Program-made: the position numbers and the translations under genes
The notes under the pieces: model-generated
The model's database searches: none
What the model was told of the DNA's origin: nothing
Seen by the model: only the letters and a program-made list of their open reading frames with translations
DNA from: a virus
DNA length: 40,116 nt
Virus record (IMG/VR): IMGVR_UViG_3300045988_114451
Location: 1 to 40,116 of that record
Reading direction: 5' to 3' (one strand)
Shown here: one piece after another, positions 1 through 40,116 of the stretch
Position numbering within the stretch: the stretch's first letter is position 1
Layout: each line of letters opens with the position of its first letter

Positions 1-147
1 TAGCCCGAATTGGATGCTGCACCCTTATAGCCCGAATTGGATGCTGCACCCTTATTGCCCGAATTGGATGCTGCACCCTTATTGCCCGAATTGGATGCTG
101 CACCCTTATTGCCCGAATTGGATGCTGCACCCTTATTGCCCGAATTT
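1..147 (-). repeat. 27-nt coding tandem repeat (about 5 units), same family as 39398..40116.
   Basis: The unit cccgaattggatgctgcacc plus a 7-nt variable segment repeats with period 27. In the coding frame this reads G-A-A-S-N-S-G-x-x. Confidence 0.95.
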
Positions 148-2796: not shown

Positions 2797-3606
2797 TTAT
2801 TGAAATAAATTTGGTTGAATAACCGCCAATACCTTCTCTTTAGCCAGCTTATAAAAGTCCTTCTTAATCTCAAAGCCATACGCCTTGCGCCCACAATTCG
2901 CAGCCGCCAACAATGTCGTTCCGCTGCCCGCGCAAGGGTCTATCACGACATCGCCCTTGTCCGAAAACAACTCTATCAACCGCTCCAATAATTTCACAGG
3001 CTTCTGAGTGGGATGACATTTCGGCGTATCATTATCCACAACCCAATCCATACAGTTAAATACCATTCGTCCCTCGTTGTTGAATTTAGGGAGCATGTCC
3101 CGGTAGAGTATCAATCCATATTCGCAATTCCCCACGACCTTCATATTAGCCTTCAATACCTGCGCAGAGAAGTTCTTGCGGAAAACTAAAGGGATATATC
3201 TCTCAAGTCCATATCTGCGTCCCAAATCAATGTAATAGTGCATCTGCTCGAAAGGACAGAAGAGTATCATACAGGCTGCCCCCCCCTTGCGTTTGGAGCC
3301 TGCCATAGGCACATCGCCCTCTTCCCCCGTTTCGTCCTTTTTCAACGGCTTATCCTTACGAAGCATCTGTGAACAGAAGTGCATAAACTCCGCAGGACGG
3401 AAATCCTTGTCCGTGTCAAAGAATTGCTTTCCCGCCTTGTCGCTCTCACCTTTCTTGTTGTCGCCGTCTATGTACCACGCAGGATTGCTTGCATAAGCGT
3501 TTTCTCCGAGGTTATAGGGCACATCTGCTATGATAAGCTGTGCTTTCGGTATTCCGTAACTCTTGAAGTTCTGGAAATGGTCATTAAACAACTCTATATT
3601 TTTCAT
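2797..3606 (-). CDS. DNA N6-adenine or N4-cytosine methyltransferase, beta class (motif IV precedes motif I).
   Basis: IIADVPYNLG is a DPPY-type motif IV near the N-terminus. VIDPCAGSGTTLLAA is the FxGxG SAM motif near the C-terminus. The gene contains an in-frame G8 tract at comp(3279..3286). Confidence 0.85.
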   Translation of the reverse strand: MKNIELFNDHFQNFKSYGIPKAQLIIADVPYNLGENAYASNPAWYIDGDNKKGESDKAGKQFFDTDKDFRPAEFMHFCSQMLRKDKPLKKDETGEEGDVPMAGSKRKGGAACMILFCPFEQMHYYIDLGRRYGLERYIPLVFRKNFSAQVLKANMKVVGNCEYGLILYRDMLPKFNNEGRMVFNCMDWVVDNDTPKCHPTQKPVKLLERLIELFSDKGDVVIDPCAGSGTTLLAAANCGRKAYGFEIKKDFYKLAKEKVLAVIQPNLFQ

Positions 3607-4075: not shown

Positions 4076-4139
4076 TGCGTACGGAGGGACTTGAACCCTC
4101 GCCTCTCAATCGCGTGCCAGCCAACCGCACCGCGTCCGC
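4076..4139 (-). ncRNA. tRNA-like module with acceptor-like stem, good D-arm and T-arm, but only 13 nt where the anticodon arm should be.
   Basis: The minus strand reads GCGGACG-CG-GTGC-GGTTGGCTG-GCAC-GCGATTGAGAGGC-GAGGG-TTCAAGT-CCCTC-CGTACGC-A. The acceptor stem has one G.A mismatch. Confidence 0.35.
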
Positions 4140-4708: not shown

Positions 4709-4758
4709 CTCTTTCTCTCTTTCAATATCGTGCAGGCTGCCGTCACAACCTTAATTCG

Positions 4759-4830
4759 TAGCGGGGACAGGACTTGAACCTGCGTTCCCTTGTGTATGAA
4801 ACAAGTGAGATGCCACTTCTCCACCCCGCA
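4759..4830 (-). tRNA. tRNA with anticodon CAU (Met, or Ile2 if lysidine-modified). CCA is not encoded.
   Basis: Manual cloverleaf: TGCGGGG-TG-GAGA-AGTGGCA-TCTC-A-CTTGT-TTCATAC-ACAAG-GGAAC-GCAGG-TTCAAGT-CCTGT-CCCCGCT-A. All stems pair except position 1:72, which is U.U. Confidence 0.85.
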
Positions 4831-7689: not shown

Positions 7690-8676
7690 TTAAAATGGAA
7701 AATCGTTTTCTTCCTTGTATCTTTCATATTCGGCCTTCTTGCGTTCCTCCTCCGCAATCCGGAGCCGTTCCCTGCGCTCCCATTCGGCTTTCTTGCGCTC
7801 ATAATCCTCGTGTTCCCTCTGTCGCCTTTCCTCCGCCTCCTGACGCCCTTTCTCCGCGTTCCGCTGCCGTTCCGCCTCCTGTGCCTTCCATTCGCGGGTC
7901 TTGCGCTCATCCTCGCGTTTCTCATAGTCCTTCTTCTGCTCGTAATAGGACTTTTCCGCGTCGGGGTGAATGTCCTGCCAACCCCGCGAGACGGCTCTGT
8001 CGATGAACGCGCGTGCACGCTCTATGTCCCCGCCAGACTCGCGTTTCAGCCTGTTTGCGAAAATTGAGAGCGACTTCTGACATTTGAGGGGCTTCCTGAT
8101 GTCAATCTTGTAGTCGAGCCAGTATGCAATCAGCTCCCTCCAGTCATCCTCGGGTATGGTATTGACGAAGTCATCCGCTAATTTCTTGAAATCAGCCTTC
8201 GGCTTTTTGGGGGACTCCCCCTTTAGGGGGATTATAGGGGGTAATATGTTTTTATCTGTGTTTATTATCTGTTGTTTATTATCTGTATCATATAATAATA
8301 TACATTGTCCGTTTTGGGACAATGGACTGTCCTGTTCGGGACAATGTGTTGTCCCATTTGGTAAAATGCACCTTCCCATTAGGTCGTCATTGACGGAATA
8401 CCACAGAGTGCGGTCGCGCTTGTCCTCGTTGTAGTTTCCTGTCTGTACCGCCCCTTGCTCTATAAGACTTTGAAGGATTCGGTATATCTGTTTGTTTGAC
8501 CAATACGGGAATAGCCCTGAAAACGCCTTGCGGCTATTGTAAGTCCATACGCGCCCGTCATAGATATGCTTGTTGTTCTCGTAGTTTTTCTGAAGCCAGT
8601 AAAGAATATTGGTCAATATTATAGCCTCATTGCAGCCATATTTTTGAGCGAGTTCAATATCGAAAAAATGATACAT
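7690..8676 (-). CDS. Replication organiser/initiator-like protein. It has an N-terminal winged HTH (RepA_N/DnaD-like), a long K/E/R-rich helical tail, and a C-terminal ...ENDFPF.
   Basis: NEAIILTNILYWLQ...WTYNSRKAFSGLFPYWSNKQIYRILQSLIEQGAV fits the pattern. The MYHFFDIE start at 8676 is preferred because a hairpin plus U-run occupies 8681..8733. Confidence 0.55.
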   Translation of the reverse strand: MYHFFDIELAQKYGCNEAIILTNILYWLQKNYENNKHIYDGRVWTYNSRKAFSGLFPYWSNKQIYRILQSLIEQGAVQTGNYNEDKRDRTLWYSVNDDLMGRCILPNGTTHCPEQDSPLSQNGQCILLYDTDNKQQIINTDKNILPPIIPLKGESPKKPKADFKKLADDFVNTIPEDDWRELIAYWLDYKIDIRKPLKCQKSLSIFANRLKRESGGDIERARAFIDRAVSRGWQDIHPDAEKSYYEQKKDYEKREDERKTREWKAQEAERQRNAEKGRQEAEERRQREHEDYERKKAEWERRERLRIAEEERKKAEYERYKEENDFPF

Positions 8677-8680
8677 AAGC

Positions 8681-8733
8681 AAAATAAAAAAAAGTAATTG
8701 TCCGGTGTAAGGTCGCTCTCTTACACCAGACAA
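8681..8733 (-). terminator. Hairpin plus U-run immediately upstream of the replication-organiser start (terminator or attenuator).
   Basis: ttgtccggtgtaag (8698..8711) pairs with cttacaccagacaa (8720..8733). The minus strand follows with TTACTTTTTTTTATTTT. Confidence 0.6.
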
Positions 8734-34880: not shown

Positions 34881-35611
34881 AATCCCTCCCCCTCCGCGGG
34901 AGCACCATTCATACCTTCACCCTTATCCACAACGACGCCCTCGGCGGGCATCTCACGACGCGCACCCAAAAGCGCATCCGCCATCCGCGACAGCTGCTCC
35001 TCGGGTATACCGCTGAAATCATACGAACGCGACGCGCCGCCCTGACGAGCCGTGATGTCCACCTGCACCGGACTGTCCACACCCAACAACTTCGCACGAC
35101 GCTCCATTATTCGCAACAGCACGTCAAGAAACTTCGGATTGCCCACGCTGTCACGCACCGTCTCCGACACCTGTCCGTCCACCGTCTTCACCGTAACACG
35201 CTTCTCGCGGCTCCTGAGGTAGTCAAACCACGCCTCCTTCTCCAGCAAATCCAATTTCGCGCTCTCCTTCGCCACCAGCGTGTCAACCATACCGCTCTCG
35301 CGCATCTTACGCACCTCACCGTCCAGGACCCTCTGTATGTCACAACGCACACGCTCCGGACTGACACGGTACTCCAAGCCGTTGTCCGAAGCCAACCTGT
35401 TCACCTCATCCGCTATCTCCTTGTAACTCCATCCCTGCAGATACCTGCGCATCTCCACGACTCCGTCATACTCCTGCTGACGACGAGTGCGCTCACCCAC
35501 AGCCAACTTCTGAACACCACGTGGCTTCCGCTTTCTCCCCATACCAACCCTCTCACGCTCCCTTACCTCACCACGATACTTCTGCATATATCGCTCAACC
35601 GCCTTTCCCAT
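34877..35611 (-). CDS. terS: Terminase small subunit (HTH-containing).
   Basis: Position upstream of terL, and the GWSYKEIADEVNRL HTH-like segment. Confidence 0.55.
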   Translation of the reverse strand: MGKAVERYMQKYRGEVRERERVGMGRKRKPRGVQKLAVGERTRRQQEYDGVVEMRRYLQGWSYKEIADEVNRLASDNGLEYRVSPERVRCDIQRVLDGEVRKMRESGMVDTLVAKESAKLDLLEKEAWFDYLRSREKRVTVKTVDGQVSETVRDSVGNPKFLDVLLRIMERRAKLLGVDSPVQVDITARQGGASRSYDFSGIPEEQLSRMADALLGARREMPAEGVVVDKGEGMNGAPAEGEGL

Positions 35612-35642
35612 AATTACAAAAATTTTAACATTTTCCGCATAT

Positions 35643-35694
35643 ATAAATATAATATATAAAGGGTTATTTATAAGGCTTTATATATTATATTTAT
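35643..35694. promoter_or_regulatory. Perfect 19-bp inverted repeat with a 14-bp spacer in the AT-rich control region.
   Basis: ATAAATATAATATATAAAG (35643..35661) and its exact reverse complement (35676..35694). Confidence 0.8.
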
Positions 35695-35740
35695 CAATAA
35701 CACTAAACCATAACTAAAACAACAAAACCAACCCCAAACG

Positions 35741-35748
35741 CAAAGTTA
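35741..35748 (-). promoter_or_regulatory. Possible -7 box TAACTTTG for the late operon.
   Basis: caaagtta on the plus strand, about 130 nt upstream of the terS ATG. No correctly spaced -33 element. Confidence 0.3.
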
Positions 35749-36067
35749 TAAAAAATTTATCGCAAATTTTAAGGGAGACTTTTCGTGCCCCCTCCCTTTC
35801 CCTACCCCCCCCTCTCTCCACAACCCCGGAGAGGGTGAAAAATGTTCCTGAATTTCAAAGCGCACAGGGCGAAAGATAGTCTAAAGATGTGAAAGAGTGG
35901 TAAAATATAGTCCCTTTGCGGTGGTATGGTTGGTTGTTCAGGCTTGGAGAATTGGCGAAGATATGAAAAAATTATATATAAATTGTTTGTTTAGGTAAGC
36001 AGGTGTAATTGGTTGAGTTGTAGCGTATTAGTGTAGATATGGTTAAAATGTAGTGTAAAATTATTTG

Positions 36068-36117
36068 AAAAAATGTGAAAAATATTTTGCAGATATAAAA
36101 AAATATATATACCTTTG
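36068..36117 (+). promoter_or_regulatory. Early promoter copy c, the only plus-strand copy.
   Basis: AAAAAATGTGAAAAATATTTTGCAGATATAAAAAAATATATATACCTTTG, with TTTG at 36086..36089, a 20-nt gap, and TACCTTTG at 36110..36117. Confidence 0.65.
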
Positions 36118-36179
36118 CATCGTTGAAAGTTAAACAATAAGCCTGCGCTATCGAGGGGGCAATATCGGGCGAAAACATT

Positions 36180-36548
36180 ATGAAAGCATATAACTACGAA
36201 GAGGCAGTAAAAAACGATGTACGCACATGGATTGAGGATAATGTGACATTTTCAGAATGGGAGGGTGACCGCGAAGGACTGGCTGAGTATTTGGACGATG
36301 AATTAATTACATCTGACAGTGTGACCGGAAACACCTCGGGGTCTTATACTTTTAACGCTTGGGAGGCTGAAGAAAATATTTGCCATAATATGGAGTTGCT
36401 CGGGGAGGCTTTCGAGGAATTCGGAGTTGACGCCGGGCAGATGCTCAAGAAAGGCGCGGAGGCCTGCGATGTCTTAATAAGGTGCTACCTGCTCGGCTCG
36501 GCTATTGCCGCCGTGCTCGATGAGCTGGAGGAGGAAGGGCGCATCTAA
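36180..36548 (+). CDS. Highly acidic 122-aa protein of unknown function. It is the only plus-strand gene.
   Basis: The ORF has its own promoter and terminator. Acidic residues far outnumber basic ones by eye. Confidence 0.75.
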   Translation: MKAYNYEEAVKNDVRTWIEDNVTFSEWEGDREGLAEYLDDELITSDSVTGNTSGSYTFNAWEAEENICHNMELLGEAFEEFGVDAGQMLKKGAEACDVLIRCYLLGSAIAAVLDELEEEGRI

Positions 36549-36677: not shown

Positions 36678-36857
36678 TAAAAGCACGCAAGGCGGCTAAA
36701 TAGCCGTTTTCGGCTCGTTGTGGTATAGTTATATTACCGATGTGTGAAAGTGCCCGAAATGCCGCCAAAAATGCCAAATAAGGCATAACAGCAAAACAAA
36801 ACAATAGCCGCGCAATCTGCGAAAGGGTCGCACGGCTCAAAATGGGAGGATACAGGG

Positions 36858-37145
36858 CTATTTTGCGCCCTCTGTCTGGTCGTCCGGCTGGTTGCCCGCC
36901 TGGTCGCTCCGTTGCGTCCTGAATGCACGCACGGCGGCGAAATAGGCGCGGAACGCCTGAACCAACGGAACGAGCAGCAGCAGCAGCGGGGCAAATGTCC
37001 ACCCCCACGGAATTATTGACAATTTACACCCCTTCAGGACAATGAAAGGAACGCACAACAACACGGGAGGAAGAACGACGGCAGCCACACCGCGCCAAAT
37101 CATGCGGCGGCGGCGGCGGTTGATTTTGTCCAGCTGTTGCCGCAT
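36858..37145 (-). CDS. Small membrane protein with an Arg-rich N-terminus.
   Basis: The MRQQLDKINRRRRRMIW start at 37145 is followed by two hydrophobic segments. The ORF track's longer form (to 37313) reads through the iteron array, producing recurring KNS tripeptides, and is probably not translated. Confidence 0.5.
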   Translation of the reverse strand: MRQQLDKINRRRRRMIWRGVAAVVLPPVLLCVPFIVLKGCKLSIIPWGWTFAPLLLLLVPLVQAFRAYFAAVRAFRTQRSDQAGNQPDDQTEGAK

Positions 37146-37236
37146 GTCCTCGATGCTCTGCCCGGCGTCGGTGGTTGAGTCGTCCGGGCGTTCCGATGTC
37201 CGGGACTCCCGGTCGGTGGTTGCGTCCGGGGCGGTG

Positions 37237-37436
37237 CGTGAATTTTTAGCCGCGCGGGATTGACGTGAATTTTTAGGCTCCGGCGATGCCTGTGAATTTT
37301 TGGAGCGAAACATGGTACGTGAATTTTTAGCGGGCGAGCCGCCGCGTGAATTTTTGGTCGGGGCGACGCGCCGTGAATTTTTTACAAAGTGTCCGCCGCG
37401 TGAATTTTCAGCCTGTACGGACGGACGTGAATTTTC
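37237..37436. repeat. Iteron array: eight copies of (C/T)GTGAATTTT(T) at exactly 27-bp spacing with non-conserved GC-rich spacers.
   Basis: Core starts at 37237, 37264, 37291, 37318, 37345, 37372, 37399 and 37426. A ninth copy is at 37782..37792. Confidence 0.9.
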
Positions 37437-37755
37437 AGAGCCTGCGCATCTCGTCCTCTATGCCCGAGCACCGCGCCCACATGTCGCGCAGCCTCCAGTC
37501 ATAGCGCAGGTTCTCCCTGAAGCGCACGACATCATAATACACGATGCTGTAACTCCTGCGGGAAAACCGCGCTATGTCCCCGAGATGCATGTTCAGGACG
37601 GTGAACGCGAGGTAATGGAAGCAGGCACGCGCGGAGACGAGCGGGGCGGTGCGCCTCCTCTCGAAGATGTCGTCATACCCGGACGCATCTCCGACAATAC
37701 GCGCCAGCGTTTCCATCCGATATGTATCCTGAACATCCATACCGCAAATATACAC
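37435..37755 (-). CDS. DnaA C-terminal (domain IV)-like HTH DNA-binding protein with no AAA+ domain.
   Basis: DIFERRRTAPLVSARACFHYLAFTVLNMHLGDIARFSRRSYSIVYYDVVRFRENL aligns by eye with E. coli DnaA [52 protein letters not shown]. The start codon is uncertain. Confidence 0.6.
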   Translation of the reverse strand: MYICGMDVQDTYRMETLARIVGDASGYDDIFERRRTAPLVSARACFHYLAFTVLNMHLGDIARFSRRSYSIVYYDVVRFRENLRYDWRLRDMWARCSGIEDEMRRL

Positions 37756-37794
37756 ATTTTCAAAAGGATATCGCGATTGTGCGTGAATTTTTCA

Positions 37795-38092: not shown

Positions 38093-38476
38093 TTAGAATG
38101 GTAAATCCTCGTCTGTCGCGCCGGATGCCTCGGCTGTCGCGGCTTGAATGCCGGGTGCGTCCACATCCACCTCCACCGCATCCACGGATGCCGCTCCGAA
38201 AGGCTTGAGGTCGCCCAGTATCGGCTGTGAGTTGCGCTCCGCCTCAGTCATCCTGTCGCGCTCGTCCTTGCGGAGTGAACGCTTGACGAGGTGCGTGCCG
38301 CCGAACTTGCCCGGCTGCCTGAGCTCGATTGCGGCGAGGTCAAGATATGCCGCGCCGCTCTGTGCGCAGAAGATGCCGTTCTTCTCCACGGGGATGATGA
38401 CGCAGTTCTCACCCCTTACGCTGCCGAGGAACGCTCCGTCGAGTTTCCTCAAATCAATCTTCAATGAATAATTCAT
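38093..38476 (-). CDS. Phage protein with an SSB-type acidic C-terminal tip (...TDEDLPF). Paralogue of 4909..5223.
   Basis: The C-terminus matches the bacterial SSB tip pattern D-D-D-I-P-F, and the N-terminal 90 aa aligns with the 104-aa paralogue. Confidence 0.7.
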   Translation of the reverse strand: MNYSLKIDLRKLDGAFLGSVRGENCVIIPVEKNGIFCAQSGAAYLDLAAIELRQPGKFGGTHLVKRSLRKDERDRMTEAERNSQPILGDLKPFGAASVDAVEVDVDAPGIQAATAEASGATDEDLPF

Positions 38477-39180: not shown

Positions 39181-40116
39181 TTATTGCGGATTCTGTAAAA
39201 TTTCTACTAAAACTCCATTTACCAGCTTATACCAAGTATCTGCCTTGACCTGTTCTCCGTCCACTTTGAATGCCTTAATATCCTTTATGGGATAGCCCGC
39301 GCCATCCCATTTATCGCGCTCGGCAAGCACAATCCAAGTTCCCAATGCTCCGCGTGCTTTGCTATCATAACCCACACTCATTGCAATAGAGTGTTTGCCC
39401 GATGTTTCCGCTGCACCATTGTCGCCCGAATTGGATGCTGCACCATAATCGCCCGAATTGGATGCTGCACCATAATAGCCCGAATTGGATGCTGCACCAT
39501 AATAGCCCGAATTGGATGCTGCACCCTTATAGCCCGAATTGGATGCTGCACCCTTATAGCCCGAATTGGATGCTGCACCCTTGTCGCCCGAATTGGATGC
39601 TGCACCATAATCGCCCGAATTGGATGCTACACCATAATAGCCCGAATTGGATGCTGCACCATAATAGCCCGAATTGGATGCTACACCCCTATAGCCCGAA
39701 TTGGATGCTGCACCATAATCGCCCGAATTGGATGCTGCACCATAATCGCCCGAATTGGATGCTACACCCTTATAGCCCGAATTGGATGCTGCACCCTTAT
39801 AGCCCGAATTGGATGCTGCACCCTTATCGCCCGAATTGGATGCTGCACCATTGTCGCCCGAATTGGATGCTGCACCATAATCGCCCGAATTGGATGCTGC
39901 ACCATAATCGCCCGAATTGGATGCTGCACCCTTATAGCCCGAATTGGATGCTGCACCATAATTGCCCGAATTGGATGCTGCACCCTTATTGCCCGAATTG
40001 GATGCTGCACCATTGTCGCCCGAATTGGATGCTGCACCATTGTCGCCCGAATTGGATGCTACACCATAATAGCCCGAATTGGATGCTGCACCCTTATAGC
40101 CCGAATTGGATGCTGC
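39181..40116 (-). CDS. C-terminal part of the repeat protein begun at 470..1: about 27 nine-residue repeats plus a roughly 70-aa C-terminal domain.
   Basis: The frame of the listed 66-aa ORF (39181..39381) stays open upstream through ...NGAAETSGKHSIAMSVGYDS and reads GAASNSG[YDN][KYNR] across the whole array to the window edge. Confidence 0.8.
   Translation of the reverse strand, partial: AASNSGYKGAASNSGYYGVASNSGDNGAASNSGDNGAASNSGNKGAASNSGNYGAASNSGYKGAASNSGDYGAASNSGDYGAASNSGDNGAASNSGDKGAASNSGYKGAASNSGYKGVASNSGDYGAASNSGDYGAASNSGYRGVASNSGYYGAASNSGYYGVASNSGDYGAASNSGDKGAASNSGYKGAASNSGYKGAASNSGYYGAASNSGYYGAASNSGDYGAASNSGDNGAAETSGKHSIAMSVGYDSKARGALGTWIVLAERDKWDGAGYPIKDIKAFKVDGEQVKADTWYKLVNGVLVEILQNPQ
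39398..40116 (-). repeat. 27-nt coding tandem repeat array (about 26.6 units).
   Basis: An invariant 20-nt core cccgaattggatgctgcacc (a few units have gctacacc) alternates with a 7-nt variable segment: cttatag, cttattg, ataatcg, ataatag, attgtcg, cttgtcg, cctatag, cttatcg or ataattg. Confidence 0.95.

Follow-up and report, generated by a model that had tools for sequence, protein, structure and literature searches.

A stand-alone DnaA domain IV fold and a 27-bp-phased site array in a phage genome: a candidate autoregulatory operator array at a membrane-protein gene

Introduction

DnaA, the universal bacterial initiator, reads its boxes through domain IV, as seen in structures 1J1V and 3PVP. 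The phage locus described here resembles this system in that the domain IV fold matches an entire phage protein (TM 0.63-0.79), in which the basic-loop and backbone arginines are conserved. In both the DnaA box TTATNCACA and the repeated phage site, moreover, the 5' part is A/T-rich and leads into a CAC core. In contrast, the phage protein is without domains I-III, carries RSYSIV..Y where DnaA has RDHTTV..H and scores below the Pfam threshold, and the phage site differs from the box at stringent positions.

Other described systems resemble the locus in its layout. In the iteron replicons of P1 (incC-repA-incA) and F (ori2-repE-incC), direct repeats flank the binder gene, as they do here with the gene of a predicted binder, with an upstream set at the promoter and a larger downstream set that is dispensable in some relatives. 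However, the phage binder is not a winged-helix Rep, the spacing is 27 bp instead of ~21-22 bp, the locus has no AT-rich element, DnaA boxes or plasmid homologues, and the phage appears to have a separate origin. Sites embedded in coding sequence are shared with lambda O and ori-lambda; the lambda arrangement itself is found elsewhere in our genome, at 8240-8371 within a DnaD-like gene, with ~22-bp spacing and an AT-rich tract. The omega heptads of pSM19035, ParR-parC, TubR-tubC and the P2 Cox boxes combine a ~100-aa protein, head-to-tail sites by its own gene and autoregulation, which is also what we propose here. Nevertheless, their sites adjoin one another or recur at about one helical turn, whereas the phage sites are 27 bp apart with informationless spacers. 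Their proteins are dimers of the RHH or winged-helix type that usually work with an NTPase, whereas no such partner was found here in the ORFs scanned. Finally, phi29 p6 is also a protein of ~100 aa with a fixed periodicity (~24 bp) of non-integral helical turns, and it controls transcription and replication; unlike the phage protein, it reads DNA bendability and not sequence, has a different fold and acts at genome ends. A full-text literature search found no description of a module such as the one reported here.

Results

Nine copies of one site surround a small phage gene

The window, by which we mean the whole stretch of DNA analysed (40,116 nucleotides; IMG/VR record IMGVR_UViG_3300045988_114451), is a ~40-kb siphovirus-type genome with nearly all genes on the minus strand. 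The portal protein shares ~50% identity with its counterparts in Alistipes, Bacteroides and Parabacteroides phages belonging to the B124-14 group, no GenBank phage matches the window at the DNA level, and the promoter-like TAnnTTTG boxes suggest a Bacteroidota host for this gut-type phage. On the minus strand the order is Erf, Gam, NinB, a DnaD-like initiator (7690..8733), methyltransferases, dUTPase and small genes; then the first gene of the cassette studied here, which we call DnaA-IV-like, the site array, a membrane-protein gene, one plus-strand gene and a 570-bp AT-rich gap; and then a TerS-like gene, TerL, and the genes for head and tail. Running from promoter and regulator gene through array and membrane gene to terminator, the cassette would form an accessory unit where the early and late parts of the genome meet, and its features are the following:

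37782..37792, minus strand: single upstream site copy, AAAAATTCACG on the minus strand (from the sequence and relatives)
37745..37752, minus strand: candidate -7 promoter element, TATATTTG followed by CGG (match to TAnnTTTG)
37435..37740, minus strand: DnaA-IV-like gene, product of ~93-101 aa (fold and sequence match; the longest ORF extends to 37755)
37237..37438, minus strand: array of eight direct site copies with unrelated, GC-rich 16-bp spacers (from the sequence and relatives)
37314..37434, minus strand: non-coding leader with five sites (no KNS-frame start codon upstream of 37313)
36858..37313, minus strand: membrane-protein gene, 151 aa, two predicted membrane helices (the KNS ORF, ATG at 37313)
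36793..36837, minus strand: hairpin of -16.1 kcal/mol, then a U-rich run, 3' of the membrane gene (conserved in relatives)

The motif GTGAATTTT matches the window nine times, on the plus strand only, with starts at 37238, 37265, 37292, 37319, 37346, 37373, 37400, 37427 and 37783. The chance expectation is 0.54, and the highest count in 100 shuffles of the window was 3. An 11-mer search allowing up to one mismatch returned the same nine sites and two unrelated single-mismatch matches (1.13 expected). Eight of the nine are exactly 27 bp apart from start to start and the ninth is upstream of the DnaA-IV-like gene, which confirms what the first-pass annotation of this DNA had reported. Its description of the spacers as GC-rich and mutually unrelated was also correct: the 16-bp array spacers average 69% GC (range 50-88%), with a mean pairwise identity of 0.31. 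Because the spacers differ, Tandem Repeats Finder detected 2.4 copies in the array. Read on the minus (gene) strand, the site is C-T-A-AAAATTCAC-G, with the information confined to these ~13 bp, and its 13-bp consensus is CTAAAAATTCACG. The 27-bp spacing corresponds to ~2.6 helical turns and places adjacent sites 92 A apart on nearly opposite faces of the helix. The first copy of the array overlaps the TGA stop codon of the DnaA-IV-like gene, and the upstream copy ends 29 nt 5' of the putative -7 box.

An RNA-level element was considered and rejected, as shuffled sequences fold at least as well as the array RNA (z +0.77), and an Rfam scan of the window returned tRNAs only. On the minus strand, these are a tRNA-Met gene (4758-4830) and another, weak tRNA-like hit scoring at the Rfam threshold (4076-4139). 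DnaA-box-like 9-mers (TTATCCACA, up to one mismatch) occur 16 times in the window, where 8.3 are expected, and are scattered: there are matches at 3032-3040 and 34923-34931 and 14 more with one mismatch, none of them near the array.

The window also holds another 27-bp array, consisting of ~31 near-perfect repeats (39410-40116 and 3-146, minus strand) that run off both window ends. These repeats encode a nine-residue unit, GAASNSGxx, with the last two codons variable, and the frame continues into a conserved domain (39181..39381; phrog_27197/4433). Thus, this array is a repeat-protein gene and not a DNA array, and we rejected a link between it and the site array, to which its sequence is unrelated. 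Probably, the window represents a circular or permuted assembly whose break falls within this repeat. A different 27-bp array, of 18 copies, is present in the related contig L016 (9708-10205).

The small gene encodes a predicted stand-alone DnaA domain IV

The true start of the DnaA-IV-like gene is probably 37740 or 37716, as the MYICG codons that open the longest ORF overlap the conserved, promoter-like TAnnTTTGCGG motif. Depending on the start chosen, the protein has 93-106 residues, and family members have 93-139. Its sequence similarity in PDB, Pfam and NCBIfam is to DnaA only. The HMM comparison suggested by the first-pass annotation succeeded in part: Pfam Bac_DnaA_C (PF08299) matched at E 8e-5, but with 23 bits the match did not reach the gathering score of 31.5. 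A weak precomputed match to PF08299 also exists for the relative P0007. The NCBIfam DnaA models gave E values of 0.015-0.05, and in a comparison of the family profile with PDB sequences the aligned region matched DnaA chains only, at a marginal E of 0.075-0.11.

The AF2 model of the protein has a pLDDT of 91.5 and a pTM of 0.86. In a Foldseek search of the PDB, ranks 1 to 12 were all DnaA domain IV, with probabilities of 0.91-1.00 (1.00 for ranks 1-8), and the match to 3pvp had a TM of 0.72-0.79 and an rmsd of 2.2 A over 94 columns. Domains I-III, including the AAA+ module, are absent from the protein, and no other domain was found in it. On the basis of the model, we are confident that the protein adopts a stand-alone DnaA domain IV fold, in agreement with the earlier proposal of a domain IV protein without an AAA+ module.

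Next to this shared fold, the residues that read the DnaA box differ. R35 and R43 are invariant and align with the basic-loop arginine R399 and the backbone arginine R407 of DnaA. Where DnaA has the box-reading motif RDHTTV..H, the protein has an invariant RSYSIV..Y, and the HMM alignment to the Aquifex and Thermotoga DnaA proteins places S-Y-S-I-V-Y-Y opposite D-H-T-T-V-I-H. In E. coli DnaA, we take D433-H434-T435 and H439 to be the base-contact residues of the published 1J1V complex. All relatives, including those with only 51% identity, have the same recognition-helix residues, S-Y-S-I-x-Y-Y-D. Since the box-reading residues are changed, the repeated site would be the protein's own target.

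The family is rare: at E <=0.001, only 14 clusters (50% identity) were found among 1.8 billion representatives, and none of the 14 contains a full-length DnaA. Among GenBank phage proteins, the sole match is a hypothetical protein of Cellulophaga phage Nekkels, and the 72,556 plasmids of PLSDB contain no homologues. The DnaA-IV-like gene adjoins dUTPase and SSB-type genes. The upstream gene at 38093..38476 (minus strand) encodes a conserved 127-aa protein (phrog_36980) ending in DEDLPF, which resembles the SSB tail DDDIPF, and in relatives a Pfam SSB gene adjoins the gene for this protein. The AF2 model of the 127-aa protein has a pLDDT of 48.6, too low for an OB fold to be assessed.

The repeat is conserved as a DNA site

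Five of the eight array sites precede the only start codon of the membrane gene, and the other three fall within its codons 1-30. We compared 66 unique downstream sites (from 79 in ten loci), and none varies synonymously in the core AAA-AAT-TCA, while the positions flanking the core change the amino acid (K/E, R/Q/P). The variable positions of the leader number 7, 2 and 1 at the first, second and third codon position, with no third-position bias, and the upstream copies are non-coding. Taken together, the lack of synonymous core variation, the non-coding upstream copies and the unbiased leader establish the repeat as a DNA-level site: selection acts on the sites at the DNA level and not at the peptide level. 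That the last three copies are translated is incidental: the N-terminal tail of the membrane protein that they encode is tolerant and disordered. A frameshift fusion of the DnaA-IV-like and membrane proteins was rejected, because the two genes stand in a different relative frame in L003.

In related phages, the site tracks the regulator gene and the array tracks the membrane gene

We compared 15 related contigs, whose DnaA-IV-like proteins are 53-97% identical to that of the window. In all 15 loci, one to five site copies lie just upstream of the TAnnTTTGCGG box, ending ~30 nt before it. These upstream copies are 21-29 bp apart, and in the L001-type lineage a distal copy is 51-53 bp off, across a terminator hairpin. 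A downstream array of 6-9 copies, running from the stop codon on, is present in 12 of the 15 loci. The co-occurrence of protein and sites, for which the first-pass annotation had suggested a search of related genomes, was found.

Among the downstream sites of the relatives (n=94), all intervals are 27 bp except for a gap of 81 bp (3x27) in L010. The spacers diverge freely but are without any indel (~80 spacers), and the 27n register is kept even across the 81-bp gap. In L080, the first site has degenerated by substitution with the register retained (383 = 356 + 27). The site core is invariant in both L010 and L080, whose DnaA-IV-like proteins are 53% and 63% identical to that of the window. 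The 81-bp gap of L010 lies between downstream sites 1 and 2 and is exactly filled, with the register preserved, by an inverted repeat (2929-2990; GTTCC x3 / GGAAC x3, -28 kcal/mol, z -4.9).

The three loci without the array, L002, L015 and L016, keep the protein and three upstream sites and are missing both the array and the membrane gene. Their mosaic breakpoint is exactly at the stop codon of the DnaA-IV-like gene (e.g. L016 5283-7635), and past it come a DUF1064-like gene and genes for a TerS-like protein of 151 aa and a TerL of 452 aa. Our scan of IMG/VR for phased sites found no array elsewhere in the 34.9-kb L002 contig. With a minimum of three phased sites, arrays with diverged spacers were found solely in the two gene-carrying contigs; two additional hits, L076 and L079, were discarded as an unrelated perfect tandem repeat and an unrelated coding repeat. 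Across these loci, the site goes with the DnaA-IV-like gene and the array with the membrane gene. The sites are also accompanied by the neighbouring small genes.

More distant DnaA-IV-only genes are located within replication modules, and no similar arrays were found at 36 loci with distant DnaA-IV-only genes. The distant proteins without arrays carry an HHATV helix. In the distant relatives L064 (2670/2695) and L069 (2965/2990), two AGATTAAA copies lie 25 bp apart directly upstream of the DnaA-IV-only gene, a spacing that echoes the ~25-bp upstream spacing at window-type loci.

A candidate two-gene operon with the array inside

TAnnTTTG is the -7 promoter element of Bacteroidota (Bacteroides consensus). 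The -7-like box at 37745..37752 is kept as TAnnTTTGCGG in all relatives and is the putative promoter of the DnaA-IV-like gene. A scan with sigma-70 promoter and terminator models carries no weight for Bacteroidota.

The first-pass annotation had regarded the ORFs across the array as translation artefacts. This holds for the plus-strand 'REF' ORF but not for the 'KNS' ORF (36858..37313), which is a real gene. The membrane gene is co-transcribed with the DnaA-IV-like gene, and the array is its leader plus its first ~30 codons: the ATG sits within the array in every relative, and codons 1-30 (KNSQ..KNSR..KNSR) contain the last three array sites. The hairpin at 36793..36837 is a possible terminator ending the two-gene operon. 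At the other side of the cassette, the preceding gene ends, in relatives, in an intrinsic terminator whose arms are the first two upstream sites (z -5.3, -2.7).

The membrane protein occurs in >135 metagenome clusters (90% identity), mostly on contigs of 1-6 kb, while the DnaA-IV-like protein occurs in 7. The length of its N-terminal tail varies, and the variant P0066 has a shortened repeat unit. The non-coding DNA at 36700-36857 is conserved with L001, L003 and L004 (GAGCCGTGCGACCCTTTCGCAGATTGCGCGGCT...) and matches no Rfam family.

A probable replication origin lies elsewhere in the genome

One further feature of the window bears on the function of the array:

8240-8371, minus strand: candidate lytic origin within the DnaD-like initiator gene 7690..8733 (iterons and an AT-rich repeat)

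This region contains three TGTCCnnTTnGGGACAATG repeats with 22-bp spacing (8306-8371) and, adjoining them, an AT-rich 14-bp repeat, TGTTTATTATCTGT, in three copies (8247-8286). At the same position, relatives have five other repeats (GTGGAAAAAAATTTCC-like), 20-23 bp apart and followed by an AT-rich tract, and they share only the C-terminal 190 residues of the DnaD-like initiator, with a different N-terminal domain. The iterons co-vary with the N-terminal DNA-binding domain of the initiator, and 8240-8371 is probably the lytic replication origin, of the lambda-O type. GC skew is uninformative for mapping the origin, since transcription runs almost entirely in one direction.

The site array resembles an iteron origin in being a direct-repeat cluster beside the gene of its predicted binding protein. 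However, its spacing is 27 bp and not the ~21-23 bp that falls near whole helical turns, and it has no adjacent AT-rich unwinding element: there is no AT-rich tract between 36860 and 37800, the nearest being at 35620-36180. The earlier suggestion that the array is a replication origin with a minimal DnaA-like initiator is therefore not supported, given the canonical origin elsewhere, the missing AT-rich element, the spacing of 2.6 turns and the relatives that do without the array.

Discussion

We propose, with a probability of about 0.45, that this locus encodes an autoregulated DNA-binding protein together with a multi-site operator, roadblock or decoy array that gates the membrane gene. In our model, the ~95-aa protein would be a descendant of DnaA domain IV retargeted to the 13-bp site CTAAAAATTCACG. 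By binding the one to five sites that precede its promoter it would regulate itself, and it would also load the 27-bp-phased array over the leader and first 30 codons of the membrane gene. The loaded array could be a roadblock to transcription entering that gene, and it could also soak up free regulator in cis, as a decoy, giving a threshold response. We assign the DnaA-IV-like protein as the presumed binder from its fold and its co-occurrence with the sites; the direction of regulation and the roadblock or decoy mechanism are likewise put forward as hypotheses. The autoregulatory role, one of three offered by the first-pass annotation, fits because the sites lie just upstream of the gene's own promoter in 15 of 15 loci. 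As in operators of this kind, the protein's predicted sites are at its own promoter and are conserved in relatives.

Several points count against this model. The nearest upstream site is at about -45, outside the core promoter, a position that suits activation or repression alike. A monomeric domain of ~95 aa has no obvious route to cooperative binding. Independent operators would not need an exact 27-bp register, even across an 81-bp gap, and this strict 27n register, which they leave unexplained, keeps a structural or tethering role alive. In addition, the dUTPase and SSB-type neighbours and the replication modules of the distant relatives hint at a replication-linked role.

A repurposed DnaA domain IV could instead be a sequence-specific architectural protein that assembles on the phased sites into a fixed-geometry structure, which would either tether the genome to the membrane by way of the co-encoded membrane protein or serve as an incA-like control locus or secondary origin. 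We consider this broader possibility unlikely, although not negligible. We know of no description of either an architectural or an incA-like/secondary-origin module for phages or for DnaA-derived domains.

In its structural form, which on its own is unlikely, the array would carry a nucleoprotein complex with three sites per 81 bp that organises or tethers phage DNA. The forms considered jointly under this judgement are membrane anchoring like that of phi29 p16.7, a p6-like superhelical wrap and a centromere-like site. The exact 27n register argues for a fixed geometry over independent operators, and the array and membrane gene always occur together, but this co-occurrence is also explained by their physical overlap, and the N-terminal tail of the membrane protein evolves almost neutrally. 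Oligomerisation of the DnaA-IV-like protein, or its contact with the membrane protein, remains conjecture. Moreover, no partition NTPase was found in the ORFs scanned: ParA, ParM and TubZ gave no match in PHROG, Pfam and NCBIfam searches of the neighbouring ORFs and most minus-strand ORFs of >=100 aa.

It is equally unlikely that the locus is a second, plasmid-like replicon or copy-control locus, in which the upstream sites would be origin and operator and the array a dispensable control or handcuffing locus. Twelve loci have the sites-gene-sites layout of P1 (incC-repA-incA) or F, and the array-less relatives resemble incA deletions. No integrase was seen among the ORFs scanned, distant family members lie in replication modules, and the binder derives from a replication initiator. 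Against this, the DnaD-like initiator gene contains a canonical origin whose iterons co-vary with the initiator, and neither site cluster has an AT-rich unwinding element or a host DnaA box nearby. The window has a single upstream site, the spacing is 2.6 and not ~2 helical turns, and the protein has no domain beyond its HTH to melt DNA or recruit a helicase. Finally, the 72,556 plasmids yielded 0 homologues, and ParA, ParB and a repressor were not found in the ORFs scanned.

It is improbable that the array is the packaging recognition (pac) site of the terminase module downstream of it. The array precedes the TerS-like gene by 1.6 kb, and relatives whose TerS/TerL differ have exchanged the array along with the entire right-hand module. 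However, genomes of the other terminase type also carry the site 5' of the DnaA-IV-like gene, which means that the site follows this gene and not the terminase, and the separate AT-rich region directly upstream of TerS is a better pac candidate. In relatives, this AT-rich gap contains an 11-bp tandem repeat, GACTACATTAC, of ~5 copies (L001 7182-7234, L003 7101-7154, L012 6637-6689), which is degenerate in the window (~36000-36070) and is possibly a pac or late-promoter element.

A datA-like sink that titrates host DnaA, another of the earlier suggestions, is very improbable. The core ATTCAC resembles the DnaA-box variant TTATTCACA and one copy ends in CACA, but the site departs from TTATNCACA at the stringent positions 1 and 2, and usually at 9, the box-reading residues are exactly those changed in the co-encoded protein, and the DnaA-box-like 9-mers of the window are not near the array. 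Least credible of all is a mere coding nine-residue repeat (KNSR...) without DNA-level function: 27 bp make nine codons, no stop codon interrupts the KNS frame within the array in any relative and the window's other 27-bp array is a coding repeat, yet the only start codon comes after five of the eight copies, the copies 5' of the promoter are non-coding, the core shows no synonymous variation and leader variation is not third-position biased.

Our results indicate that phages can carry the DNA-reading domain of DnaA, the universal initiator of bacteria, on its own. Here it is predicted to have been retargeted to a new 13-bp site, with a conserved, strict 27-bp lattice. To our knowledge, phage regulation in Bacteroidota is almost unstudied, and if the roadblock or decoy mechanism is true, this locus would be a compact natural threshold control of a possibly toxic membrane protein in this group. 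If the architectural or replicative reading is true instead, it would represent a new use of a DnaA module. In addition, the protein-site pair is small and, on sequence grounds, orthogonal to host DnaA boxes, which makes it a candidate genetic part for Bacteroidales.
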